A stretch of 64,000 nt of DNA, taken from the NCBI GenBank assembly GCA_942491135.1, contig CALNZS010000005.1, positions 58,260 through 122,259 on the forward strand, in the 5' to 3' direction. The notes under the pieces are model-generated. The model searched no databases and was not told the origin of the DNA. It saw only the letters and a program-made list of their open reading frames with translations. The stretch is from an uncultured Gammaproteobacteria bacterium. GTDB lineage: Bacteria > Pseudomonadota > Gammaproteobacteria > Pseudomonadales > Azotimanducaceae. Made by a program: the position numbers and the translations under genes. Positions 1,268-55,042 of this stretch are shown here, one piece after another (the stretch's first letter is position 1; every line of letters begins with the position of its first letter).

Positions 1268-2142
1268 TGGGACTGCCGGCGGGTTGGACCCGGCAGCGTG
1301 TTCCCGCGGCCGGACCGGTGCTGCTCTGCCTCGCCGCCCTGGCGGCGGCGCCGGAGCGGCTGGCCGATACCCCCGGCGGGACGTCCGTCGCGGCCGCGGC
1401 CGAGGACCACAGCGATATGGTGCTGGTCCGGGCCGGGTCCTATGCGCCGCTGTTCCGCGACCCGGGCCAGGCATCGCGCATCCCGGTGGACGCTTTCCTG
1501 ATGGACCGGTATCTGGTCAGCAACGCCGACTTCGCAGCCTTCGTCGCCGGCCATCCCGGCTGGGCGCCAGCGCGAGTGAAACCGGTGTTTGCCGACCCTA
1601 ACTACCTGAATCAGTGGCAGGGTTCGGATCCCAGCGACCCCACCGGCATCGGTCCGCAACCGGTGACCGAAGTGTCCTGGTTCGCCGCACGCGCCTACTG
1701 TCGCGCGCAAGGCAAACGCCTGCCCGGGGTCGACGAGTGGGAATACGCGGCCGGCGCCAACGAGCACAGCCCGGAAGCCCGGGACGACCCGGAGTTCCGG
1801 CAGCGGGTGCTGACCTGGTACTCGCGGCCCGCCATCACGCATCTGCCGGACGTCCGGGACACCTGGACGAACTACTGGGGCATCCAGGGTATGCATGGGG
1901 TCGTGTGGGAACTGGTCAACGACTTCAACAGCGCGCTGGTCAGCGGCGAGTCACGCGGCGACAGCGCCCTGGAGACCAGTCTCTATTGCGGCGCCGGCGC
2001 CGCGGCGTCGGCGGACCCGTCCGACTACGCGGCCTTCATGCGCTACGCCCTGCGCAGCAGCTACCAGGCCACCTCGACCATGCGATCCCTGGGATTCCGC
2101 TGCGCCAGGGACCTGCCCGACGCCGGCGCCCGGCCATCATGA
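1267..2142 (+). CDS. nirV: NirV-like FGE-sulfatase (SUMF1) domain protein
   Basis: Blocks VSWFAARAYC, DEWEYAA, WELVNDF and RSLGFRCARD are typical of the formylglycine-generating-enzyme fold. The start abuts the nirK stop, the usual nirK-nirV arrangement. Confidence 0.75.
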   Translation: MGLPAGWTRQRVPAAGPVLLCLAALAAAPERLADTPGGTSVAAAAEDHSDMVLVRAGSYAPLFRDPGQASRIPVDAFLMDRYLVSNADFAAFVAGHPGWAPARVKPVFADPNYLNQWQGSDPSDPTGIGPQPVTEVSWFAARAYCRAQGKRLPGVDEWEYAAGANEHSPEARDDPEFRQRVLTWYSRPAITHLPDVRDTWTNYWGIQGMHGVVWELVNDFNSALVSGESRGDSALETSLYCGAGAAASADPSDYAAFMRYALRSSYQATSTMRSLGFRCARDLPDAGARPS

Positions 2143-2723
2143 CGCACCCGGCGCTGCAGGTTCTGTTGGCGACGGTACTGGCAACGCTGGCCGGCATCTG
2201 CCCCGCCGCCTCCGGCGAGACGCTGCCGGACGACTCGGTCTACCACCTGGACGGGACCTGGCAGGATCAGAACGGCACCTCACTGCGCCTGCCCGACCTG
2301 AGCGGGCGGCCGCGCCTGCTCAGTTTCGTCTACACCTACTGCGAGCATACCTGCCCGACCATCGTCGCGCGCCTGAAGGACACCGTCAGCGAACTCGGTG
2401 ACCAAGCGCCTGCTGGACTCCAGATCACCCTGGTGTCACTCGACCCGGAACGCGACACCCCGCAGCGCATGAATGCCTGGATGACCGAGCGCGGCCTGGA
2501 TCCCCGGCAGTGGCGCATGCTGCACGGTTCACCGGACGACGTGCGCGGCTTCGCCGCCATGATCGGCGTGCGTTACCGTCCCATGGGCGACTCCGACATC
2601 GCCCACTCCAACATGATCACCGTGCTCGACCACGACGGCGTGATCCGCTATCAGTCCCAGGGACTGAACGACGATCCGGCCGCGGCCCGGGCCGCTCTCA
2701 GAGCATTGCCAGCGCCACCCTGA
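2139..2723 (+). CDS. SCO1/SenC family copper chaperone
   Basis: Internal ATG of ORF 1614..2723 (MTHPALQVLL...) forms an ATGA overlap with the nirV stop. Signal-like N-terminus and a thioredoxin-fold CEHTCP (CxxxCP) copper site. Confidence 0.85.
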   Translation: MTHPALQVLLATVLATLAGICPAASGETLPDDSVYHLDGTWQDQNGTSLRLPDLSGRPRLLSFVYTYCEHTCPTIVARLKDTVSELGDQAPAGLQITLVSLDPERDTPQRMNAWMTERGLDPRQWRMLHGSPDDVRGFAAMIGVRYRPMGDSDIAHSNMITVLDHDGVIRYQSQGLNDDPAAARAALRALPAPP

Positions 2724-2753
2724 CCGGCCTGTCCGGCAAGGCCCCGGAAATTA

Positions 2754-2774
2754 ACCGTCAGTGTTGACTTTTTC
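2754..2774 (+). promoter_or_regulatory. Copy of recurrent motif ACCGTCA-N4-TGAYTGT-TTT (candidate operator)
   Basis: ACCGTCA GTGT TGACTTT TTC, about 80 nt upstream of the MFS start at 2855. Confidence 0.45.
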
Positions 2775-2854
2775 TGCCCGCCACCAGAAGCTTCCCTGGG
2801 CATCTGGACGGCAGGGGAGATCCGAGTGCGGCCATTTCTCAGGATGTACGGGAC

Positions 2855-15138: not shown

Positions 15139-15630
15139 TTGAGCTGGATCACCGGAAACGACACCCACTGGAATGCGCTGCTGGCGCAACAGCCGACGCT
15201 GGCACCGGGCTATCGGGCTTTCTACCGCGCGTTGTGGCAGGACGGCGGCCTCGACCGCCGCGTGCTCGAATGCTGCCGGCTGCGTATCGCCGCCATTCAC
15301 GACTGCGACGTCGAGTGGCGTCTCCGCGACCCCGCCGTCCCCGTGACCGACACCGAAGAGGCGGCACTGCGCCGCGGCGAGAGAACGCCGTTCCCAGCCG
15401 ATCAGCAGGCGGCGCTCGAGCTCGCCGAACGGATGCCGTTCGATCAACACGGCATCGAAGATGTCGAAGTGGCTGCCGCCCGCCGGCATTTCGGCGAAGC
15501 CGGCACCGTGCAGCTCATGCTGGCGCTGGCCTTCTTCGACGCCACCTGCCGCATGAAGCTGGTCAGCGGGGTGACGCCGACTCCGTCCGGATCCAACGCC
15601 CCGCCATCGCGGCGTGGCCGGGCGCCGTGA
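15139..15630 (+). CDS. Carboxymuconolactone decarboxylase (AhpD-like) family protein
   Basis: 163 aa with a TTG start. The RLRIAAIHDC block is typical of the CMD fold. Confidence 0.7.
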   Translation: MSWITGNDTHWNALLAQQPTLAPGYRAFYRALWQDGGLDRRVLECCRLRIAAIHDCDVEWRLRDPAVPVTDTEEAALRRGERTPFPADQQAALELAERMPFDQHGIEDVEVAAARRHFGEAGTVQLMLALAFFDATCRMKLVSGVTPTPSGSNAPPSRRGRAP

Positions 15631-15661
15631 CGCCGGCCCGCTCAGTCACAGGAGAGCAACC

Positions 15662-16186
15662 ATGTCCACGCACCCGCGCCTGCCCGCCGCCGTTCCGGGT
15701 CAAGCAGAGACCCTGGCCAGCGTTCTGGCCCACACGCCGGATTCGCTGCGCCGGTTTTTTGAGCTCTACGGAGAGTTCTGGCAGCACGGGGCCGTGGATC
15801 CAGCGCTCAAGGAAATGACCCGCCTGCGCAACGCGCGCATCACCGACTGCGGTTTCTGACGCAACGTACGCTTCGACTCCGCCCGTGCGGCGGGGCTGAC
15901 CGAACAGCAGGCCGAGCGGGTGACCGACGGCTACGAGGACACACTGGCGCCGCGGGAGGTGGCCGCGCTGGCGCTGACCGATGCCCTGGTCGGCGACCCC
16001 CGGAACCTGGACCTGGCCGCGAAGGACCACCTGCTGGCGCACTTCACCCCGGAGCAGATCGTCGAGTTGCTGCTCGGCGTGGGCCTGTTCCTGGGTATGT
16101 CCAAGGTACTGATCACCCTCGGACTGGAGCCGGAAGACATGGCGGTGACGGTCATACCGACACCGGGCAGTCCTCCGGCGCGCTGA
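15662..16186 (+). CDS. AhpD/CMD family protein with in-frame TGA at 15857..15859: candidate CxxU selenoprotein (alternative: pseudogene)
   Basis: ORFs 15614..15859 and 15920..16186 share a frame, with a single TGA and no other stop between them. ATG 15662 follows AGGAGA. The TGA aligns with the second Cys of CxxC in paralog 54452..55042. Confidence 0.6.
15877..15895 (+). other. SECIS-like hairpin downstream of the in-frame TGA
   Basis: CUCCGCC-CGUGC-GGCGGGG. 7-bp stem (one G.U) and a 5-nt loop with G at position 2. The stem starts 18 nt after the TGA. Confidence 0.4.
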
Positions 16187-31800: not shown

Positions 31801-32325
31801 ATGACTCTGACTCACTATCCCCTGTTCCAGCAGGCCTATCTGGTGAACGACGTGGAGCAGGCCTGTCACGACTGGAATCAGCTGTTCAACGCAGGCCCCT
31901 TCGTGGTCGTTCCGCACCATCAGACGGACCGGTTCACATACCGGGGTACCGACCAGGAAGCCGACGTGTCCTACGCATTCGGCTACCTGGGCGACATGAT
32001 GATCCAGTTCATCCAGCAGCACGACGAGACCCCGTCCATCTACCGCGACATGTACCAGGCCGGCGAAGAAGGCTTCCATCACGTCGGCGTGCTGGTCCAC
32101 GACTTCGAGGCCGAGTTCGAGCGCCTGGAGTCCATGGGCTTCGAGTGCGCGTGCCGGCTGTGGGCGGACAACGTCGATGCCGCCTACTTCGATACCCGCC
32201 GCGCCAACGGCTGCTTCACCGAAATTCACGGGGATCCGAATCACATTCTCGCGACCTTCGCGACCTGGAAACGGTCTCACGAGCTGTGGCAGGCAGGCGA
32301 TCCGGTCATCGTACCGAGAACCTGA
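31801..32325 (+). CDS. VOC (glyoxalase/bleomycin-resistance/dioxygenase) family protein
   Basis: 174 aa. Blocks AYLVNDVEQA and GFHHVGVLV. Paralog of 43123..43653. Confidence 0.75.
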   Translation: MTLTHYPLFQQAYLVNDVEQACHDWNQLFNAGPFVVVPHHQTDRFTYRGTDQEADVSYAFGYLGDMMIQFIQQHDETPSIYRDMYQAGEEGFHHVGVLVHDFEAEFERLESMGFECACRLWADNVDAAYFDTRRANGCFTEIHGDPNHILATFATWKRSHELWQAGDPVIVPRT

Positions 32326-32339
32326 CGCCACCACGACAC

Positions 32340-32357
32340 GGCGGCCTCACGGCCGCC
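32340..32357 (+). terminator. Hairpin after the VOC gene
   Basis: GGCGGCC-tcac-GGCCGCC, a perfect 7-bp stem, followed by cggTTgaTTcgaTT. Confidence 0.4.
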
Positions 32358-32384
32358 CGGTTGATTCGATTAGGGAGAGAATCG

Positions 32385-34940
32385 ATGCAGAGCTTCAGGA
32401 ATTCACCATTGTGCCGGGGCGTACGCCAGTCCGGACCACACTCCGCCGGCGCTGGCCGGCGACTGCTCGCCACTTCCGCGCTGCTGTGCTGCGCCCTGCC
32501 GGCGGCATCCGCGCTGGCGGCGGAAGACGTCAACGCCCGCATCATCGAAGAGATTCTGGTGACCGGCACCAAACGCGAGACCTCGGCCCAGGACGTGCCC
32601 ATTGCCGTCACGGCCATCTCCGACGAAATGCTGCAGCGTCAGTTCCGCAACGACATCCTGGCCCTCGGCGAACTGTCACCGGGTGTGGCGCTCGGCCAGC
32701 AGCCGGGCTTCCGGGCCATCGCCGGCGGGGTGCGCGGAACCGGCCAGAACTCCATTCTGGTGACCCAGGACTCCTCGGTGGTGGTGCTGGTGGACGATTT
32801 CGCTCTGTCCAGCGTTCAGTCCCAGTTCGTGGAAATGTTCGACGTCGACCGGATCGAGGTCTATCGCGGCCCCCAGGGCACGCTGTTCGGCAAGAGCGCC
32901 ACCGGCGGCGCCATTTCGATCATCACCAAGCGCCCGGACCTCACGGAGTACGGGGCCGACCTGTCCTATCAGTACGGACGCTTCGATGGTGACGACGGTT
33001 CGCCCGCTGACATCCAGAAGTTCAACGCCGCGGTCAACATTCCGCTGATTCCGGAAAAGCTGGGCCTGCGTGTGGTCGGTATCTGGGATCAGGACGACGG
33101 TTACTACACCAACGACAAAGCGACCGCCACATGGCCGGATTTCGCCCCGCTGTATGGCGGTCCCGCGCCGGTACCGGACGGGATCAGCACCCGGACCGTC
33201 GGTTCCGGAGAGAACCTGAACGACACCGACGTGTTCGCCGGTAAGGTCAAGCTGCTGTGGCAGCCCAACGACCGTTACGAAGCGTACTTCCTGTTCGACT
33301 ACCTGAACGACGATTCCGGCACCGTACCCGGGGTCAACGAGAGCGAATCGGACATGCTGCTGCCGCTGCTGGGCTTTCCATCCATCCAGGATGCCGGCAA
33401 CGACAACGAGTTCAGCACCGGGGTGACCAACCAATGTGTCGAAGGTAACCCCGACGGTCTGTGCCTGACTGCCGGCAGCCGGGTCAACGTCGAATCCTAC
33501 ATGCTGCACCAGGCCCTGGAACTCGAGGACTACAGTATCAAGCTGATCCTGGCGACCCGGGAAATGACCGAACGGCTGCCGGACACCTACACCGGCGAAG
33601 CTTTCACGTCGCTGTTCGACGCCGCGCGCAACACCACCCGGGATCAGGACCAGTACGAGTTGCGGGTCAATTCCAACTACGACGGACCGTTCAACTTCGT
33701 GGCCGGCGCCTCCTACGCCACCGACGACGTCAGCATGCTGGCCTATGCCACGGTCGGACTTTCAGCGCTGTTGCCGCCATTCGACACCGACTTCATCACC
33801 GACCCGGCCACCTCCGGCGCCGACCAGGACCGGGAAACCACGGCTTTCTACGCGGACGCCAGTTTCGACATCACCGAGCGCCTGACCCTGTCCGGCGGTA
33901 TCCGCTACACGGATGACGAAAAGACCTTTTTCCGCCGCGCCAACCCGGGCGGCCCGTGTACCGCGCTGACCCCGGCCAAGGATCAGGCCCTCATCGACGG
34001 TGAATGTCTGGATGCACGTTCCAACGCCATATCGCGGGTGGGTGACGACTTCAGCGCCAAGGATCTGCAGGCCTACGAGATCCCCCTGCCGGACAGCGCC
34101 TTCGGCATCGCCGACACCTTCAGCGACAGCTGGAACGAAACCACCTACCGGGTGGTGCTGGACTACGACGTAGCGGACGCCATGATGGTCTACGCCAGCT
34201 ACGCCACCGGATTCATTCCCGGCGGATTCACCGAGACCTGCTCGAGCCTCCAGACCTGCCAGCCCTTCCAGTCGGAGACCAACTGGAATTTCGAAGTCGG
34301 CATGAAGGGTCAGTTCATGGACAACACCCTGCAGACCAACCTCGCGGTGTTCTTCACCGAGTACAAGGATCTGATCCGCTCCCAGGTCGTACCCTTCACC
34401 AACGCCTTTGGCGTCACGACCCAGGAAACCATCAACATCAACGCCGGGGTGTCCGAAGCCTGGGGCGTCGAGGGCGAGGTGACCTGGCTGGCCACCACCA
34501 ATCTGCAACTCTCGCTGGTGTTCGGCTATCTCGACCACGAATACAAGGAATTCGAGCTCGATACCGACCTCGACGGTACCCTGGAAGACCTGTCCGGCCT
34601 CACGGTGCCGTTCTCTCCAGAGTGGAAGGTGGGCGCGTCGGCGACTTACGACCAGATCCTGCCCGCGGGCCGGCTCACCTACAACGTCAATGCCAACTAC
34701 CAGGACGAAGCCGAGATGTCGGTGTTCAACTCGCCTCTGACCCAGATGGAAGAGCGCACCCTGGTCGACGCCAACGTCACCTACTGGGCACCGGAGGACC
34801 GCTACTACGTCACCCTGTGGGGCAAGAACCTGACTGACGAGCGCAACCGTTTCGGGGCCAACTCGGTAGCCGGGTTGTGGAACTTCACCATGTACGGCCG
34901 GCCCCGGTCCTACGGGATCGAAGTCGGCGTGTCCCTGTAA
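32385..34940 (+). CDS. TonB-dependent receptor
   Basis: Internal ATG behind AGGGAGAGA. Signal peptide ending ASALA-AED. Plug block EEILVTGTKRE...DVPIAVTAIS and RIEVYRGPQGTLFGKSATGGAISIITKRP. Confidence 0.92.
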   Translation: MQSFRNSPLCRGVRQSGPHSAGAGRRLLATSALLCCALPAASALAAEDVNARIIEEILVTGTKRETSAQDVPIAVTAISDEMLQRQFRNDILALGELSPGVALGQQPGFRAIAGGVRGTGQNSILVTQDSSVVVLVDDFALSSVQSQFVEMFDVDRIEVYRGPQGTLFGKSATGGAISIITKRPDLTEYGADLSYQYGRFDGDDGSPADIQKFNAAVNIPLIPEKLGLRVVGIWDQDDGYYTNDKATATWPDFAPLYGGPAPVPDGISTRTVGSGENLNDTDVFAGKVKLLWQPNDRYEAYFLFDYLNDDSGTVPGVNESESDMLLPLLGFPSIQDAGNDNEFSTGVTNQCVEGNPDGLCLTAGSRVNVESYMLHQALELEDYSIKLILATREMTERLPDTYTGEAFTSLFDAARNTTRDQDQYELRVNSNYDGPFNFVAGASYATDDVSMLAYATVGLSALLPPFDTDFITDPATSGADQDRETTAFYADASFDITERLTLSGGIRYTDDEKTFFRRANPGGPCTALTPAKDQALIDGECLDARSNAISRVGDDFSAKDLQAYEIPLPDSAFGIADTFSDSWNETTYRVVLDYDVADAMMVYASYATGFIPGGFTETCSSLQTCQPFQSETNWNFEVGMKGQFMDNTLQTNLAVFFTEYKDLIRSQVVPFTNAFGVTTQETININAGVSEAWGVEGEVTWLATTNLQLSLVFGYLDHEYKEFELDTDLDGTLEDLSGLTVPFSPEWKVGASATYDQILPAGRLTYNVNANYQDEAEMSVFNSPLTQMEERTLVDANVTYWAPEDRYYVTLWGKNLTDERNRFGANSVAGLWNFTMYGRPRSYGIEVGVSL

Positions 34941-38418: not shown

Positions 38419-38868
38419 TCAGTCGCGTAGTCCGTAGAATTCCCGCCGTGGCCACAGAAAGTCGATGCGCGTCAGCTCGATCTTCCAGGCGCCGTCCACC
38501 TTGCGGTAAACGTCGTCGTAGATGCCGAACAGGGTCAGTGGATTCTCGGCCCCTTCGGCGACGTTCAGATTGAGCTGATACCAGCGGCCATTGGCGCGAT
38601 CGTCGCCCAGCAGCCGGATCCACGGGTTGGTCACGGCGTGCATCTGGGAATGGACCGCGCGGCCGCTGCCAATGAGAAACTCGTGGTAACGGGCCCGGAT
38701 CTCTTCCTTGCCGGTCCAGTTACCGCCGAAGGCGGGACCGTATTCGCACACCGCGTCGTCGGTGAACAGGTCCACGAGCTCGTCCAGCATGTTGCCGTCG
38801 TAATAGTGCGAATACAGATAACGCATCTGCTTGATCGCCTCGATCTCCAGCAGTTCTTCGACCGTCAT
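38419..38868 (-). CDS. NTF2/SnoaL-like family protein
   Basis: Internal ATG behind GGGGAGA (MTVEELLEIEAIKQMRYLYSHY...), 149 aa. Confidence 0.75.
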   Translation of the reverse strand: MTVEELLEIEAIKQMRYLYSHYYDGNMLDELVDLFTDDAVCEYGPAFGGNWTGKEEIRARYHEFLIGSGRAVHSQMHAVTNPWIRLLGDDRANGRWYQLNLNVAEGAENPLTLFGIYDDVYRKVDGAWKIELTRIDFLWPRREFYGLRD

Positions 38869-38900
38869 GATGTTCTCCCCTGCGAGTTCGGCTTCAGTCG

Positions 38901-38929
38901 TTGACATTCTGCCCAGCGAACAAAACAAT
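38901..38929 (+). promoter_or_regulatory. Candidate sigma70-type promoter of the Rieske operon
   Basis: TTGACA, 17-nt spacer, AACAAT. The -10 element overlaps the motif copy at 38922..38942. Confidence 0.35.
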
Positions 38930-38942
38930 CACCAGATCCGGT
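38922..38942 (-). promoter_or_regulatory. Copy of recurrent motif (candidate operator)
   Basis: Minus strand reads ACCGGAT CTGG TGATTGT TTT. Lies in the divergent region between NTF2 (38868) and Rieske (38993). Confidence 0.4.
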
Positions 38943-38992
38943 TTTGGTTCGAACGGAATCCGGTTTCATTCCAGTTGCATGGGGGGAGGACG

Positions 38993-40285
38993 ATGTTCGA
39001 CGCCAGCGAAATTGCCACGTTGCGCCAGCTCATGGAGTACGAGGCCGCCCGCCGCGAGCCGCCGAAGGATTTTCCGGTGTTGCCTGAGATACCCGGCGGC
39101 CGCTACACCGACCCGCGATTCTACGAACTGGAGCAGCGTTACCTGTGGCGAAAGTCATGGCTGCTGGCCGCCCACCTGGACGAGTTGCCCGAACCGGGTT
39201 GTTTCCGGCTCTGGGAGACCGCCGGGCAGCCGGTGATTCTGGTGCACGGTGACAGCGGCCGCATCAAGGCCTTCTACAATACCTGCCGGCATCGCGGCGC
39301 GCCCATCGTGACCGAACAATCCGGTCAACGGCCGCGCCTGGTGTGCCGCTACCACGGCTGGACCTACAGCCACGACGGCGACCTGATCGCCGTGCGCGAC
39401 CCGGAAGACTTCCGCGGGCTGGACTTTTCCTGCCATGGACTCAAGGAGATCCGCTGCGAGCGCTTCGGCAATCTGATCTTCGTGAACTTCGACGACGAAG
39501 CGCCGTCCCTCGTGGACTGGCTCGGGCCCATCGCCGACGAGTGGGCGGAATTCCAGTTCGACCGCTGCCGCCTCGCCGCGCGCCATATCTTCGATCTCAA
39601 CTGCAACTGGAAGGTCGCCATGGAGGCCAATACCGAGGTCTACCACGTGCGCAGCATTCACCCGAAGACCGTGGCGCCCATCGTCGACGACCGGCGCAAC
39701 GTCAACACCCTGTATCGAAACGGCCATGGACGCATGATTGCGCCGCCACCGCGGCGCGCCGGGCCATCCGAACATGTGCGCCAGGCCGGCCCGGAAATCG
39801 ACAGCGTCGGAGAGATCGGCCGGACCTGCACGCAGTCCTACGGCATCTTTCCCAACTGGGTGTCACCGCTCAGCCACCGCGGCATCCCGCCGCTCCTGTT
39901 CTGGCCCAACGGCATCAACCGCTGCCGGCTGGAAACCTGGACCATGACCCCCGACTGGGGCGACGGCCCCCGCCCCGATCACTGGACCGTCAACGACGGC
40001 GAGAGCCTCAATCAGGTGCTGCTGGAAGACACCCAGTTCGGCGAATGGATCCAGAAGTCCATCGAGTCCTACGGCTTCCAGGGCGTTCGCTTGAGCTACC
40101 AGGAGGCGCGCATCTATCACTGGAACCAGTGGGCGGACCGGATCATCGGCCCCGACAACATTCCACCCGAGCTGCGCGTCGATCCGGTGATCGGTGACGC
40201 CTGGCTGTACCCGAACGATCCCCGCCTGGAGGAGATGCAGACCATGGAAACCGGACAACGAACCGCCGCGGAGGGCAACGCATGA
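38993..40285 (+). CDS. Rieske [2Fe-2S] oxygenase, alpha subunit
   Basis: ATG behind GGGGGGAGGA (MFDASEIATL...). CRHRGAPI...CRYHGWTY. Confidence 0.9.
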   Translation: MFDASEIATLRQLMEYEAARREPPKDFPVLPEIPGGRYTDPRFYELEQRYLWRKSWLLAAHLDELPEPGCFRLWETAGQPVILVHGDSGRIKAFYNTCRHRGAPIVTEQSGQRPRLVCRYHGWTYSHDGDLIAVRDPEDFRGLDFSCHGLKEIRCERFGNLIFVNFDDEAPSLVDWLGPIADEWAEFQFDRCRLAARHIFDLNCNWKVAMEANTEVYHVRSIHPKTVAPIVDDRRNVNTLYRNGHGRMIAPPPRRAGPSEHVRQAGPEIDSVGEIGRTCTQSYGIFPNWVSPLSHRGIPPLLFWPNGINRCRLETWTMTPDWGDGPRPDHWTVNDGESLNQVLLEDTQFGEWIQKSIESYGFQGVRLSYQEARIYHWNQWADRIIGPDNIPPELRVDPVIGDAWLYPNDPRLEEMQTMETGQRTAAEGNA

Positions 40286-46103: not shown

Positions 46104-48578
46104 ATGACTCGAAAGCGAATTCCGGCTGCCGTCACGGCTGCCGTCACCGCCCTGTCCGCATTCTGGATACACCCCGCGTCCGCCGCCGAAAGATCGGCGA
46201 TCATCGAAGAAGTCATCGTCACCGCACAGAAGCGGGAAGAGGCAGCCCAGGACGTTCCATTACCCATCACCGCGCTGTCACAGGAGCTGCAGCAGGCCAG
46301 CATCCGCAGCCTCACCGACCTGAACGGGTTCGCGCCCAACGTGAACATCGCCCGTGACCCGTCCCGGGCCGGCGGTTCGTCCATCACCATTCGCGGCATC
46401 AGCCCGACCCGCACCGACGACAACTCTTTCGACTCTCCCATCGCGGTGATGATCGACGGCATCTACCTGGGCACCCTGGCCGGCCAGGTTCTGGAGAACT
46501 TCGACCTGGAACGGGTAGAAGTGCTGCGCGGGCCGCAGGGAACGCTGTTCGGCAAGAACACCGTCGGCGGCGTGATCAACGTGATCCGCAGCCGCCCTAC
46601 CGGGGAACTGGGCGCCCGACTGAACCTGACCGTTGGTGAATGGGGCCAGCAGGAGTTTCGCGGCGTCTTCAACACCCCGGTGATCGAGGACAAACTGGCC
46701 GCCAAGTTCTTCTACACCAATCTGCAGGGTGACGGCTACATCGAAAACGAGTTCGCCGGCGGCGACATGCCGGAGAAGGACTATCAGAACTACGGCCTGA
46801 CCCTGCTGGCCAATCCCACCGATTCGTTCGAAGCCCTGTTCACCATCGAGAAGTTCGAAGACGACAGTCAGGGCGGGGCCAACCTCACCAACTTCAACCT
46901 GGCGCCGGGGGTAGTACCACCGCCCACGGATCCGCGGGAACAGGATCTGTCCAACGGGTTCTTGTCCTGCACCCTGTTCGCCAGCATGGCCATTCCCAAC
47001 TGGAACTCCGACGTGCCGTGCCGCACCAGCCTGGACGAACCGTCGAAGATCTCCACCGACCTGAAGAATCCGTCGGAACTGGACACCGACGCCTACACGC
47101 TGACCATGAGTTGGGACGTGTCCGAGGCGCTCCGGCTGGTATCGGTAACCGGCTACCGTGACATGGTCGAGAACCGCCAACTCGATTTCGACGGCAGCTC
47201 CGGTGACTTCATCACCATCGAACGCAGGAACGACTTCGACCAGTTCAGTCAGGAACTGCGTGTGGAAGGGGCCTGGGACAATTTCACGGTGGTCGCCGGC
47301 GGCTACTACTGGGACAGCGAGTTCACCCAGGACTGGGTCACCGGCGGTGAATTCTGGAGCTACATCAACTCGCTGAGCGGCTACGACCTGTCCAACAATA
47401 CCTGGATCTTCGGCGGGGCTCTGGTGCCGCCCGGCGGCGGCGAAGCGCTGGCGCTCGGCATGGGTCTGACCCCGCTGGAAGGCTGTCTGGCGGAGATGTT
47501 CGGCAACGTCCGCTGCGACACCCGCACCCCGGTAACGGGAATGGGCCCGGGACTGATCCAGGAACTGTGGGAAACCCAGCGCACCAAGTCTACGGCGGTG
47601 TTCGCTCAAGCCGACTGGACGTTCGCCGAAGACTGGACCCTGACCGCGGGAATCCGCTACACCACCGAAGAGAAGGATTTCCAGGCCGGACAGGCCTACC
47701 TGGCTCCGGTCGAAAACTCGTTCAGCCGCAACTTTCCGGCCATTGCGGACCTGGACAACGACTGGAACGACACCTCGCCCAAGCTGGGCCTGGCCTATCG
47801 CATGACCCCGGACGTGATGTTCTATGCTTCCTACTCGGAAGGCTTTCACTCCGGCGGGTTCTTCGGCGTCAATCAGAACGTCGCCGACTTCGAGCGCGAC
47901 CAGTACGACCCGGAGTATTCCAAGAACTGGGAGTTGGGCATGAAAAGCCAGCTCTTCGAGGACCGGGTGCAGCTCAACCTGGCGTACTTCTACAACGATT
48001 TCGAGGACAAGCAGGAGCAGTCGATTCAGTTCGACGCGTCCACTAACACGGTTGCCACGGTATTCAGCAACGCCGCGTCCGTGATCTACCAGGGCATCGA
48101 GGTGGAAACGCAGTGGGCGGTCACCAACTATCTGCGCCTGTTCGCATCCTTCGGCTGGCTGGATGCCGAGTACGACGAGTTCGAGACCGACATCAATCCC
48201 AACGACGATGCCATCGGTGGTCCAACCATCGAGGATGCGAGCTTCCTCACGCCGAGGAACGCGCCCGAGTACACCTACGGACTCGGCGGTGACCTGTCGA
48301 TACCGGTGGGCGCTGGCTTCTTCGAAGCCTTCGCCAAGTACGCGTACACCGACGATGTAGAGACCAACCTGCTGAACCTGCAGGTCGGTCACATCGACAG
48401 CCGGGAGGACCTGAGCGCGTCCGTCGGCTACCGCTACCAGAACTTCCAGATCACCGTGTTCGGCCGCAACCTGACCGACGAGGTCATCGAGGTTCCAACC
48501 CTGATTCAGCCCCTGTTCGCGTCCGGCACCATCAGCCCCGGCCGCTCCTGGGGGGTGGAATTGCTGGCGGAGTTCTGA
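46104..48578 (+). CDS. TonB-dependent receptor
   Basis: Signal peptide ending ASA-AER. Plug block EEVIVTAQKREE...DVPLPITALS and RVEVLRGPQGTLFGKNTVGGVINVIRSRP. Terminal Phe. Confidence 0.92.
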   Translation: MTRKRIPAAVTAAVTALSAFWIHPASAAERSAIIEEVIVTAQKREEAAQDVPLPITALSQELQQASIRSLTDLNGFAPNVNIARDPSRAGGSSITIRGISPTRTDDNSFDSPIAVMIDGIYLGTLAGQVLENFDLERVEVLRGPQGTLFGKNTVGGVINVIRSRPTGELGARLNLTVGEWGQQEFRGVFNTPVIEDKLAAKFFYTNLQGDGYIENEFAGGDMPEKDYQNYGLTLLANPTDSFEALFTIEKFEDDSQGGANLTNFNLAPGVVPPPTDPREQDLSNGFLSCTLFASMAIPNWNSDVPCRTSLDEPSKISTDLKNPSELDTDAYTLTMSWDVSEALRLVSVTGYRDMVENRQLDFDGSSGDFITIERRNDFDQFSQELRVEGAWDNFTVVAGGYYWDSEFTQDWVTGGEFWSYINSLSGYDLSNNTWIFGGALVPPGGGEALALGMGLTPLEGCLAEMFGNVRCDTRTPVTGMGPGLIQELWETQRTKSTAVFAQADWTFAEDWTLTAGIRYTTEEKDFQAGQAYLAPVENSFSRNFPAIADLDNDWNDTSPKLGLAYRMTPDVMFYASYSEGFHSGGFFGVNQNVADFERDQYDPEYSKNWELGMKSQLFEDRVQLNLAYFYNDFEDKQEQSIQFDASTNTVATVFSNAASVIYQGIEVETQWAVTNYLRLFASFGWLDAEYDEFETDINPNDDAIGGPTIEDASFLTPRNAPEYTYGLGGDLSIPVGAGFFEAFAKYAYTDDVETNLLNLQVGHIDSREDLSASVGYRYQNFQITVFGRNLTDEVIEVPTLIQPLFASGTISPGRSWGVELLAEF

Positions 48579-50416: not shown

Positions 50417-50905
50417 TCAGCGGCAACTCGGATCGTCGGGCGCCCTGGCGCCGCGCAGCGCGTCCGGCTGCTGGCGGAAGAAGTCGTCCGCCGCCGGCTC
50501 GGTTCGCGCCCAGTCGTTGACTTCCGCGCGCGCGGCAATTTTCCACGCACCGTCGCGCTTCTGGTAACGGTCCACATAGCGGCCGGCGATGAACAGGTCT
50601 TCGGGACCGGATGCGCCGCTGATCCGGTGATAGGCCTGAAAGTAGACCTCACCGAAGGCCTGATCGCCGTCCAGGGTGATCAGAATCTGTCCGAGCATGT
50701 GATGGTTGGCGGCATGGTCACCCAGCGCCGCAAAGGCCATGTCGACGAACTCGTCCGGACCGCCTCTGAAGAACCCGTAGTCGGCATCGGCATCGTCGTG
50801 AAAGACGCTGCGCAGCGCCTGCCGGTCGAGCCGGTCGAGACCGCGCATGTAGGTCGCGGACAGGTCTTCGATTTCCTTACGATCCAGCAGTTCCTCAAGC
50901 GTCAT
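50417..50905 (-). CDS. NTF2/SnoaL-like family protein
   Basis: Internal ATG (MTLEELLDRKEIEDLSATYMRGLD...), 162 aa. Confidence 0.75.
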   Translation of the reverse strand: MTLEELLDRKEIEDLSATYMRGLDRLDRQALRSVFHDDADADYGFFRGGPDEFVDMAFAALGDHAANHHMLGQILITLDGDQAFGEVYFQAYHRISGASGPEDLFIAGRYVDRYQKRDGAWKIAARAEVNDWARTEPAADDFFRQQPDALRGARAPDDPSCR

Positions 50906-51002
50906 GGGCCCTCCGCAAAATCCAGCATCAATGACGGAAAGTATGCGGATTCCCTCCGGTCGCGGCCAGCAGCACAGGGACAAGCCGCACCGCTGCCGAC
51001 AA

Positions 51003-51023
51003 AAAACAGTCATAGTTGACGGT
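51003..51023 (-). promoter_or_regulatory. Copy of recurrent motif (candidate operator)
   Basis: Minus strand reads ACCGTCA ACTA TGACTGT TTT, between NTF2 (50905) and Rieske (51072). On the plus strand, TTGACG, 18-nt spacer, TAATCT could be the Rieske promoter. Confidence 0.5.
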
Positions 51024-51071
51024 AATCTCCCGCGCTGTGTAATCTCTCCCCGAGCCCGAGGGGAGTTTCGA

Positions 51072-52493
51072 ATGGCAGTCGATCTGACCCGATCCCGTGA
51101 CGGTGGCCCACCGCCCGGCGCGGCCCGATGTCCCGGGCCGAGCACTCGTGACATCATCCTGCGTGATGGCGACGCCACGCCGCCGGCCTTCACCGCCGAG
51201 TCGTACCAGTTTCTGGGTGATCAGGACATTCCGTTCGCGCGCTACACCAGCGACGCGATCTATCGCGCCGAGATCGAGCACCTGTGGCCGAAGACCTGGC
51301 AGTGGGCGTGCCGCGAGGAACACATCCCCGCCCCGGGTGACTACGTGGTGTACGACGTCGGCCCCTACTCCGCTCTGGTGCTCCGCGACAAGAGCGGCAC
51401 GATCCGGGCGTTCGTGAACTCCTGTCCCCATCGGGGCATGCAGTTCTGCGAGGCCGGGTCTTCAGGGACGGGCAAACAGTTCCTGCGCTGCCCGTTTCAC
51501 GGCATGGCCTGGGAACTCGACGGCGCCCTGCGCGACGTACCCTGCCAGTGGGACTTCCCGCACGTCGACCCGGAAACCTTCGGGCTGGCCGCCATCTCCG
51601 TCGCCACCTGGGGCGGGTTCGTGTTCGTGAACTTCGATCCCCACGCCGGTCCGCTGGACGATTACCTGGGCGTGCTGCCCGAACACTTCGCCCAGTGTGC
51701 CTGGCCCCTGGAGGACCGCTTCGTCAGCCTGCACATGAGCAAGGTCCTGCCAGGCAACTGGAAGATGTGCATGGAGGGCTTCCTGGAGGCCTTCCACGTG
51801 CTGGCGACCCATCCCGAGGGCCTGCGCACCGCGGGCGACGCCAATGCCCAGTACGACGTGTTCGGCGACCATGTGTCCCGCTTCATCCATACCATCGGTT
51901 ACCCGAGCCCGCACCTGCCCAAGCCGCTGGACCAGCGTGAACTGTTCGCGGCCCTGGGCCACGACCCGGCCGACCTGCCGGAAGGCGTCGGCGCGCGCCA
52001 GCGCCACGCCGATCTGATGCGCGAGCGGCTCGGCGCCGAATACGGCGTCGACCTGCAGGGGGTCAGCAACTCCCAGATGCTCGACTCCATCGAGTACTTC
52101 CTGTTTCCCAACGCCTGTTTCTTTCCCGGCATCAACATTCCCCTGGTCTACCGCTTCCGGCCGCTGGATGTGGATCACTGTCTGCACGAAATCCTGCTGC
52201 TGCAGCCGGTACCCGAAGGCCGTCCGCGGCCGGCGCCGGCGCCCGTCATCGAGCTTGGCCTGGACGATTCCTACCAGTCGGTGGATGAATTCGTTGCCAC
52301 CGGGCTCGCCTACGTGCTGGACCAGGACACCGAGAACTTCCGCCGCCAGCGTGCCGGCATCAAGGCCGCGAGCAAACCGGGACAGACCCTGGGCAACTAT
52401 CAGGAGGTGCGCATTCGACACTTCCACCGGACACTCGACGGGTACCTCGACGGGACCCGTTCGGACAAACCCAACGCGATGGAAACCGGTTGA
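51072..52493 (+). CDS. Rieske [2Fe-2S] oxygenase, alpha subunit
   Basis: ATG behind GAGGGGAG (MAVDLTRS...). CPHRGMQF...CPFHGMAW. Confidence 0.9.
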   Translation: MAVDLTRSRDGGPPPGAARCPGPSTRDIILRDGDATPPAFTAESYQFLGDQDIPFARYTSDAIYRAEIEHLWPKTWQWACREEHIPAPGDYVVYDVGPYSALVLRDKSGTIRAFVNSCPHRGMQFCEAGSSGTGKQFLRCPFHGMAWELDGALRDVPCQWDFPHVDPETFGLAAISVATWGGFVFVNFDPHAGPLDDYLGVLPEHFAQCAWPLEDRFVSLHMSKVLPGNWKMCMEGFLEAFHVLATHPEGLRTAGDANAQYDVFGDHVSRFIHTIGYPSPHLPKPLDQRELFAALGHDPADLPEGVGARQRHADLMRERLGAEYGVDLQGVSNSQMLDSIEYFLFPNACFFPGINIPLVYRFRPLDVDHCLHEILLLQPVPEGRPRPAPAPVIELGLDDSYQSVDEFVATGLAYVLDQDTENFRRQRAGIKAASKPGQTLGNYQEVRIRHFHRTLDGYLDGTRSDKPNAMETG

Positions 52494-54029: not shown

Positions 54030-54440
54030 TCAGCCGCGGATCACACCGTGGATCCGCTCTGCGGCGATGCGCAGAATCACCCGCTGCTGATCGGCGAGCC
54101 ACTGCGCCAGATCCTCCGGCTCCTGGTAGCCCGTGTCGGCGATGTTCGCGAACACCAGGCGAGTGCGCCGCGTCAGGTCCTCGCTCTCCACCCGGGCCAG
54201 ACCTTCAATGGCCACGAAGTTGAAGGGTTCCGCGTTGCTGATCACACACAGGTTCACGCGCCCGTCCCGTTCGATGCTGGCGCGCTTGAAGGTTGCGCCC
54301 GGGGTGCTGACCACGAAGTCGTCACCGTCCCTGGCGTAGGCGACCACGGAGCTGACCGGCGCCCCGGACTGGCGCAGCGTGGTCAGCACGGCCCAGCGAT
54401 GGGCGCTCAGAAACGCGTCATGGCGCGGATCGACGTGCAT
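54030..54440 (-). CDS. PPOX class flavin/F420-type oxidoreductase
   Basis: Internal ATG (MHVDPRHDAFLSAHRWAVLTTLRQSGAPVSS...), 136 aa. Confidence 0.7.
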   Translation of the reverse strand: MHVDPRHDAFLSAHRWAVLTTLRQSGAPVSSVVAYARDGDDFVVSTPGATFKRASIERDGRVNLCVISNAEPFNFVAIEGLARVESEDLTRRTRLVFANIADTGYQEPEDLAQWLADQQRVILRIAAERIHGVIRG

Positions 54441-54451
54441 TGCGCCGGCCC

Positions 54452-55042
54452 TCAGCGGACCACGGTGGCTTCCTGACCCCACGGACTGATGGTCGAACCA
54501 TCGGTCCGGAAAGCCTCGGGAAGTTCGTCCACCATGTGATAGGTCGCCGCCAGGCGCCCGAATCCGACGAAGAACGCGCAGACCATGCCCAGTTCGACGA
54601 TCTCGGCTTCCGTGAAGTGCTCGTGCAGCCGCGCGTACATCGCGTCGTCGATGGCCAGGTGGTCGGTGGCCATGAGTTCGCCGTAGGCAATGGCGGTCTT
54701 CTCCGCTTCAGTCAGGTCCGCGGCCTCCTGGGGACGCTCCAGGGAACACACCAGATCCTCGGTCACACCATCGGCAACGGCATCCCGGTAGCGGATCGCC
54801 ATGCAGCTCCGGCACTGATTGAAGAAAGCGATGCGCAGCCGCACCAGCTCCACCAGCCGCTCCGGCAGCGTACGGGACACCTTCAGCGCGCGGCCGAAGG
54901 ACATCAGCCCCAGCGCCAGCTCGGGGCAGTGCGCGAAGTAGCGGCTCAGACCCTGCTCCAGGTCGGTGAGCTGTTCCGGATGAATCGCTTCACGCAGCCG
55001 CGGGTCCCAGTCGTCCGCAGCCACCTTGCTGATTCGGCCCAT
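54452..55042 (-). CDS. Carboxymuconolactone decarboxylase (AhpD-like) family protein, CxxC form
   Basis: 196 aa, RLRIAFFNQCRSCMAIRY. This is the Cys-containing paralog of 15662..16186. Confidence 0.8.
   Translation of the reverse strand: MGRISKVAADDWDPRLREAIHPEQLTDLEQGLSRYFAHCPELALGLMSFGRALKVSRTLPERLVELVRLRIAFFNQCRSCMAIRYRDAVADGVTEDLVCSLERPQEAADLTEAEKTAIAYGELMATDHLAIDDAMYARLHEHFTEAEIVELGMVCAFFVGFGRLAATYHMVDELPEAFRTDGSTISPWGQEATVVR

Follow-up and report, generated by a model that had tools for sequence, protein, structure and literature searches.

A candidate AhpD-like selenoprotein gene with an intragenic SECIS-type hairpin in an uncultured Azotimanducaceae bacterium

An AhpD-like gene with a single in-frame TGA

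The stretch of DNA analysed here, 64,000 nucleotides of contig CALNZS010000005.1 from an uncultured gammaproteobacterium of the Azotimanducaceae (in the following the window), carries on its forward strand at 15662-16186 a gene of the AhpD/carboxymuconolactone decarboxylase (CMD) type with 174 codons plus stop, in which codon 66 is an in-frame TGA (15857-15859) predicted to specify selenocysteine (Sec) and is followed by a hairpin resembling a bacterial Sec insertion sequence (SECIS). A first-pass annotation had proposed that the open reading frames (ORFs) 15614-15859 and 15920-16186 belong to one gene, and both indeed lie in the same frame with the TGA as the sole stop between them. Read through from the ATG at 15662, behind a Shine-Dalgarno-like AGGAGA recognized by sequence reading (15650-15655, forward strand, 6 nt 5' of the ATG), the translation gives the expected CMD/AhpD-like protein with a match to Pfam CMD, and the gene ends with a TGA terminator at 16184-16186 on the same strand. 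The base call, flagged earlier as a possible sequencing error, is reproduced by an independently assembled Logan contig (L089, run ERR9670067) that is identical over 501 nt, TGA included. TGA is also the commonest ordinary stop codon in the window, so that a global reassignment of TGA does not apply to this genome. A scan of the window for in-frame TGA codons flanked by coding sequence of high GC content at third codon positions gave no further selenoprotein candidate; of the other sites returned, 26972 is an ordinary gene boundary and one short case is spurious.

The TGA lies inside RLRNARITD-C-G-F-[TGA]-RNVRF, and its proposed placement at the redox CxxC site of the family is borne out by alignment with Cys-type homologs and with PA0269 of Pseudomonas aeruginosa, where E51, C63, F65 and U66 fall opposite Glu36, Cys48, Tyr50 and Cys51 of the proton-relay site. 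The codon of Cys63 (TGC, 15848-15850), the first residue of C-G-F-U, is invariant in all homologs, and that of Glu51 (15812-15814), the relay Glu of the motif E-x11-C-x-x-C/U located eleven residues before the first Cys, is invariant in both homolog alignments; residue 65 is Phe in the window and Tyr in most orthologs. Where PA0269 has the relay His55 and Mycobacterium tuberculosis AhpD has His137, the window protein has Arg70 (15869-15871); all these codons are on the forward strand.

Queried with Cys at the TGA position, the window protein belongs to Pfam CMD (PF02627) with an E-value of 3.9e-10 and 40 bits at a cut-off of 23. A family profile searched against the PDB led to PA0269 (2ijc, 2o4d; E 4.5e-14), 7xw1 (E 6.9e-14) and Atu0492 (2gmy; E 2e-12), followed by the 'peroxidase-related' structures 3c1l, 2oyo, 2prr and 6k40. 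The structural model was that of P0001, a Cys homolog 60% identical to the window protein, for which the AlphaFold prediction has a pLDDT of 93.7 and the best PDB matches of Foldseek are again 2gmy, 2ijc and 2o4d, with target-normalised TM scores of 0.77-0.82. The predicted fold is all-helical and AhpD-like, with the CxxC on the second helix of the conserved helix pair and C63-G-F-U66 opposite C48-A-Y-C51 of PA0269. The protein combines this fold with a redox motif that has the predicted Sec at its second position, yet, with Arg70 in place of the relay His, it is no textbook AhpD.

Conservation of the TGA codon and of the downstream hairpin

Orthologs were sought in one genome per GTDB species, and the best 80 of 158 relatives were analysed as DNA. 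The first-pass annotation had asked whether relatives carry TGA or a Cys codon at this site; the codon is TGA in 77 of the 80 species-representative orthologs, TGC in the remaining three and TAA or TAG in none, and no further lesions were encountered. The closest relative, locus L001, likewise has TGA. Every TGA-carrying sequence (80 in number) begins with a MST.PR start 65 codons before the TGA (64 in L072) and has exactly one internal stop, without a second lesion anywhere, while the true terminators of the same genes are a mixture of TGA, TAG and TAA. The host genomes belong for the most part to uncultured Pseudomonadales (Ca. Azotimanducaceae / Azophilus, OM182), with Dehalococcoidia and other Chloroflexi as well as Myxococcales also among them (three phyla in all). 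More distant full-length homologs from the protein search, of about 170-180 residues and 41-60% identity, have CGFC or CGYC at the same place.

The ratio of nonsynonymous to synonymous substitution rates (dN/dS) in nine pairs was 0.05-0.35 upstream of the TGA and 0.09-0.42 downstream; from these low values past the TGA it follows that the downstream part is translated and under the same purifying selection as the upstream part. The synonymous rate is lowered across the first 33 codons after the UGA. As a side observation, the Tyr codon directly before the UGA is TAC in 53 of the 54 genes that have Tyr there, with nearby two-fold codons far less biased, which could reflect an influence of codon context on the decoding of UGA. 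One further locus stands apart by its label: L004 (CAMAVY010000151.1) derives from a metagenome-assembled genome (MAG) named Klebsiella pneumoniae, yet has a Pseudomonadales-type pair of partner and Sec-AhpD genes at 64% identity, and the bin is probably mislabelled or contaminated.

The hairpin CUCCGCC-CGUGC-GGCGGGG, postulated in the first pass, is present on the forward strand at 15877-15895 and constitutes the centroid structure (-12.5 kcal/mol) predicted for the 54 nt that follow the TGA. Its 7-bp stem is formed by 15877-15883 and 15889-15895, and the 5-nt loop CGUGC (15884-15888) starts 24 nt after the UGA. The bacterial SECIS (bSECIS) model demands a loop of 3-9 nt, a stem of 4-16 bp, a distance of 16-37 nt from UGA to loop and a minimum free energy of ≤ -7.5 kcal/mol, with G in the first two loop positions that is usually followed by G or U (PMC13188914). 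The supposed fit to this model holds in stem and loop length, spacing and energy and in the G at loop position 2 with subsequent U. A lower extension of the stem (15873-15875 with 15897-15899, with a bulged A at 15876) has compatible pairs, but is not claimed, as neither double changes nor covariation were found there.

Covariation was assessed in 67 distinct gammaproteobacterial sequences that align without gaps from the TGA onwards. In this set 94.5% of the cells of the 7-bp stem are paired, whereas in a control with the 3' arm slid by 1-3 columns pairing reaches only 38-61%. Pair 24/36 is C-G in 45 sequences, U-A in 21 and U-G in one; pair 27/33 is C-G in 45, U-A in 20, U-G in one and unpaired in one; and pair 21/39 is C-G in 50, U-A in five, A-U in one and unpaired in 11. 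Double-changed cells number 47, compared with 14.3 ± 2.7 in shuffles, and RNAalifold independently recovered the inner five base pairs. On a neighbour-joining tree built from the protein without the hairpin residues, the double switches between C-G and U-A at three pairs occurred independently at least nine, at least seven and at least four times. Since the covarying sites are all third codon positions, protein conservation cannot explain the covariation. The hairpin is hence kept in TGA-carrying orthologs with compensatory changes, as had been anticipated for a functional element.

The same constraint is visible in the choice of synonymous codons, which is restricted at codons +6 to +13 in 69 genes. 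The Arg codon of the loop (+9) is CGT in 69 of 69, with CGC and CGG dominating at other Arg positions, Ser +7 is encoded by TCC or TCT only and Ala +8 by GCC or GCT only, while Ala +10 (bar one GCT) and Ala +11 use GCG or GCA only, so that the choice of the Ala codon follows the side of the stem. The comparative evidence on the TGA and the hairpin together is far above chance.

Ten orthologs from Chloroflexi and Myxococcales (L059, L060, L063, L065, L068-L070, L077, L078 and L082) have kept the TGA with a different hairpin, CGCUUCGC-CGUGGC-GCGAAGCG, which is shifted upstream (TGA +12 to +34) and consists of an 8-bp stem and a CGUGGC-type loop 17 nt after the UGA. A different hairpin behind a retained TGA fits lineage-specific SECIS elements; the Sec codon seems to have been kept while the SECIS changed from phylum to phylum.

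Decoding of the UGA codon

We read 15662-16186 as one intact selenoprotein gene with an intragenic SECIS and put the probability of this reading at about 0.92. Four points argue for Sec as the inserted residue: UGA and Cys alternate at a redox position, the hairpin fits the bSECIS model, its G-U loop is invariant, which points to a conserved binding factor, and the family has precedent. UGA codon 66 would accordingly be decoded as Sec during translation. The hairpin within the coding sequence would bring SelB-GTP-Sec-tRNA(Sec) to the ribosome, with insertion of Sec in place of termination. The product would be a 174-residue thiol-selenol oxidoreductase of the AhpD/CMD fold, in which the active-site helix begins with C63-G-F-U66 and Glu51 precedes this motif by eleven residues, and in which Sec66 would take the place of the second, relay-linked Cys of AhpD-like enzymes. 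Such a protein most likely cycles between the selenol/thiol and the selenenylsulfide form and in doing so reduces a peroxide or an oxidised partner, either a protein or a small molecule.

Several observations weigh against this reading. With respect to the RNA, the 54-nt region folds no better than its dinucleotide shuffles (z = -0.03), and no Rfam family matched at gathering scores; at E ≤ 10, a search of 15780-15980 returned one meaningless match to a long non-coding RNA only. Single-sequence folding gave z values between -1.7 and +1.4 and is uninformative in GC-rich DNA; in a genome of 66% GC the hairpin of a single sequence alone is not above chance and proves nothing. On the protein side, the score against NCBIfam TIGR01926, the model for peroxidase-related enzymes, is 32.5 bits at a cut-off of 81.8 and that against TIGR00778, the AhpD core domain, 25.4 bits, just below its cut-off of 27.8. 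Moreover, Arg70, invariant in 59 homologs, takes the place of the fifth relay residue, a His that follows the second Cys at a distance of four residues and that AhpD-like proteins are said to share without exception (PMC3141380); classical AhpD chemistry may therefore not apply unchanged. As for the decoding machinery, ARAGORN detected no tRNA gene in the window and only tRNA-Val, without tRNA-Sec, at 82 related loci, no sel gene was among the ten largest unassigned ORFs of the 27-54 kb part (Pfam: catabolic and transport functions only), and selA, selB and selD were not found in the 10-kb flanks of further relatives. These searches cover the window and the flanks of related loci, and the capacity of the source genome for Sec decoding is what we infer from the gene itself. 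The tRNA-Val(GAC) genes occur in one clade (L047, L072, L073, L074 and L079), on the opposite strand and downstream of the selenoprotein gene within about 0.1-1.7 kb. Nothing on selenium was found in the literature on Azotimanducaceae.

Alternatively, the TGA could be a true stop in a split gene. Its products would be an N-terminal peptide of 65 residues and, from a start of its own, a C-terminal polypeptide of about 100 residues, and the two may assemble non-covalently. Gene callers in many relatives do give proteins of 65 and of 102-109 residues, the latter from codon +3 (GTG), and the NCBI entry for the source contig (173,625 bp) has an 88-residue C-terminal piece (P0160, from GTG 15920; 15920-16183), called as a fragment and not as a pseudogene, in agreement with the expectation that pipelines would break up the locus. 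The protein search recovered about 60 clusters of such fragment relatives with 101-114 residues and 60-81% identity, all starting with M/V-RFDSARAAGL; as they begin three codons after the TGA, they carry the signature of gene callers that restart past an internal stop, and the DNA of L001 and L002 holds the 65-codon ORF, the TGA and the remainder of the gene in frame. The source-contig record and these clusters are thus mis-annotated as fragments or 'hypothetical protein'. At codon +3, GTG occurs in only 28 of 69 genes, and the window has GTA there; separate initiation of a C-terminal protein is therefore not conserved as an option, and the next start in the window, GTG 15920, would drop 21 conserved residues including the invariant R70 and F71. 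Neither is a conserved Shine-Dalgarno sequence located ahead of the candidate restart, nor would the split leave the CxxC intact, which would be cut in the middle of the active-site helix. The use of TGA alone among the stop codons at this site, whereas real stops vary, and a downstream hairpin with a conserved GU loop, for which a split gene has no role, make this alternative very improbable.

Equally hard to sustain is a recoding that is independent of Sec, in which a tRNA for Trp, Cys, Gly or Arg, either near-cognate or a suppressor, reads the UGA and the hairpin is a generic stimulator and not a SelB-binding SECIS. Downstream structures can stimulate read-through in other systems, and the Sec machinery was not observed in the window. 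Nevertheless, the UGA is found exactly at the redox Cys position where homologs carry Cys, and such a Sec/Cys pair is the signature by which selenoproteins are defined (PMC1088965). The match of the hairpin to the bSECIS model in spacing, loop size and G-U loop, the prior cataloguing of the AhpD-like CxxU family and motif as selenoproteins, and the role of TGA as the main ordinary stop of the window all favour Sec insertion over such a tRNA.

The idea that the TGA is an inactivating mutation or an artefact, for which one base change in TGC or TGT is sufficient and which accords with the handling of such loci as disrupted by pipelines, is refuted by the recurrence of this TGA across three phyla in 77 of 80 relatives at species level, by the freedom of all relatives from a second lesion, by the downstream dN/dS of 0.09-0.42 and by the identical independent assembly, and its probability is negligible.

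Partner gene, neighbourhood and known systems

Directly upstream of the selenoprotein gene, a partner gene on the same strand (15139-15630) encodes a diverged CMD/AhpD-like paralog of 163 residues, in which IHDC replaces the redox motif; its stop TGA (15628-15630) lies 31 nt before the selenoprotein start. The match to Pfam CMD is weak and below cut-off (E 8e-4), and the partner is a distant paralog, as tblastn reaches the selenoprotein gene itself at 23-27% identity where the partner is absent. In 78 of 82 other loci, including those of Chloroflexi and Myxococcales and two of the three Cys-type loci, a partner homolog is located immediately upstream, 8-100 nt from the selenoprotein start. L013 is probably a 79th such locus, since its tblastn match ran into the selenoprotein gene and was removed by the filter; L003 has no partner and instead a divergent 244-residue ORF upstream (2077-2811, minus strand), GntR-like by eye only, and tblastn found no upstream partner match in L037 and L076. 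The two-gene unit is hence conserved from Pseudomonadales to Chloroflexi and Myxococcales. In its motif IH[DG]C the Cys is present in about two thirds of the orthologs and the His is nearly invariant.

The selenoprotein gene is predicted to be co-transcribed with the partner, and the two products probably work together. AhpD-like proteins are trimers or hexamers (PMC3141380), which by analogy makes a mixed oligomer a reasonable idea. A more far-reaching proposal, that the Sec protein and its mostly Cys-less paralog constitute an obligate hetero-oligomeric redox module with a substrate unlike that of classical AhpD, and as such a functionally new selenoenzyme, is considered rather unlikely; in this proposal, the Arg in place of the relay His and the missing AhpC partner would speak for a different substrate and, for example, the reduction of small molecules or xenobiotics as by Bmp8. 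No ahpC gene is adjacent in the window, nor does one appear in the annotated gene lists of L001, L002 and L083-L088.

Beyond the pair, gene order is not conserved among the annotated loci. The neighbours in the window encode a ThuA-like protein, a luciferase-like monooxygenase, two short-chain dehydrogenases/reductases, an enoyl-CoA hydratase and a major facilitator superfamily transporter, and the gene order of the 12-25 kb part is apparently shared with Logan contig L001. In one subgroup (L002, 10410-16864; L086-L088, 10345-15403), the pair is followed by gamma-glutamyltranspeptidase, CysD and CysN/C, genes absent from the window, and a link to glutathione or sulfur metabolism may exist there.

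A second paralog, of the Cys type, is encoded at 54452-55042 on the minus strand, a strand left unstated in the first-pass annotation (Pfam CMD E 5.6e-11). The alignment described there can be confirmed, with CRSC opposite CGF-TGA and HFTEAEIVEL opposite HFTPEQIVEL at 32% identity over 113 residues (E 4e-11). This gene overlaps by 31 nt with the gene behind it, which encodes a PNPOx-like flavoprotein (54030-54482, minus strand), and, unlike the selenoprotein gene, has no diverged CMD partner adjoining. The region 27000-54000 of the window is a catabolic and transport island with two alpha subunits of Rieske ring-hydroxylating oxygenases (38831-40285 and 50904-52493), a P450 (29630-30970), two TonB-dependent receptors (32145-34940 and 46104-48578) and genes for an acyl-CoA dehydrogenase, an AMP-ligase and a 2-oxoacid dehydrogenase E2.

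The significance of the locus lies in annotation and in leads to function, with knowledge of Sec decoding and of the existence of AhpD-like selenoproteins unchanged. For neither the subfamily nor its SECIS does a curated NCBIfam or Rfam model exist, which fits with databases that show its members as fragments or name them 'hypothetical protein'. The 67-sequence SECIS alignment and about 80 full-length sequences are enough for a family hidden Markov model and a SECIS model, which could correct the annotation of many MAGs of Pseudomonadales, Chloroflexi and Myxococcales. The reading implies that an uncultured gammaproteobacterial lineage uses Sec, and the conserved two-gene AhpD-like module and the active-site variant with Sec and Arg for His are leads to function.

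Among known systems, the SECIS of the Escherichia coli fdhF type shares with the window a hairpin inside the ORF just after the UGA and a small apical loop with G and then U; the sequence of the window hairpin is unrelated, and an fdhF-like bulge is not established in it. AhpD-like selenoproteins with CxxU are, as the first pass had stated, a known class (Zhang, Fomenko and Gladyshev 2005; Zhang and Gladyshev 2008; PMC1088965, PMC2398784). These reports describe their discovery with 27 sequences in Sargasso Sea data (PMC1088965) and, in the Global Ocean Sampling data, 299 sequences of AhpD-like 1 (COG2128, CxxU) and 70 of AhpD-like 2 (PF02627, CxxU), which are among the most abundant families (PMC2398784). 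They are also included in a 2026 review, which ties 'AhpD-like protein' to TIGR01926, and in BSepDB. The marine proteins have in common with the window the AhpD/CMD fold, CxxU, Cys homologs and a SECIS just past the UGA, and the available portions of this literature contained no mention of a conserved upstream paralog or of the change from His to Arg. JGI labels the fragment relatives 'alkylhydroperoxidase family enzyme', which we take to be the name of COG2128. This label points to membership in AhpD-like 1 rather than AhpD-like 2, an assignment based on COG and Pfam labels only.

The Cys-type proteins PA0269 (2ijc, 2o4d, 7xw1) and Atu0492 (2gmy) share the two-helix motif E-x11-C-x-x-C with an aromatic third motif residue; PA0269 forms a hexamer and has weak activity as a peroxidase (PMC3141380). 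At 20-24% identity, the window protein differs from both in the predicted Sec for the second Cys and in Arg70 for His55, and in about 40 additional N-terminal residues, a conserved C-terminal TV[LIV]PTPG tail and the diverged paralog beside its gene. The AhpD of M. tuberculosis (1knc, 1gu9), with its CxxC site and a proton relay of Glu, His and water, is the mechanistic template of the family (PMC3141380), but has another chain topology and is a marginal Foldseek match (E about 1, TM about 0.54); its relay His is absent from the window protein, which is also without an adjacent ahpC. The NCBIfam models NF053654 (YciW-related (seleno)protein), NF041047 (distant AhpD homolog) and NF041238 (AhpD-related protein) share the CMD/AhpD superfamily and CxxU, and the sole match among the selenoprotein models of this superfamily was to NF053654, with 18.9 bits at a cut-off of 310. 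The debrominase Bmp8 (6ohi, 6ohj), a thiol-dependent dehalogenase of the same CMD fold, is distant (16% identity, Foldseek E 6e-4, profile E 1.1e-3); it shows that this fold is capable of reductive chemistry on small organic substrates, with no sign of a halogenated substrate for the window protein. Compared with these systems, the gene at 15662-16186 represents neither a new kind of recoding nor a new family, but is a new, hitherto unannotated member of the known AhpD-like CxxU class.

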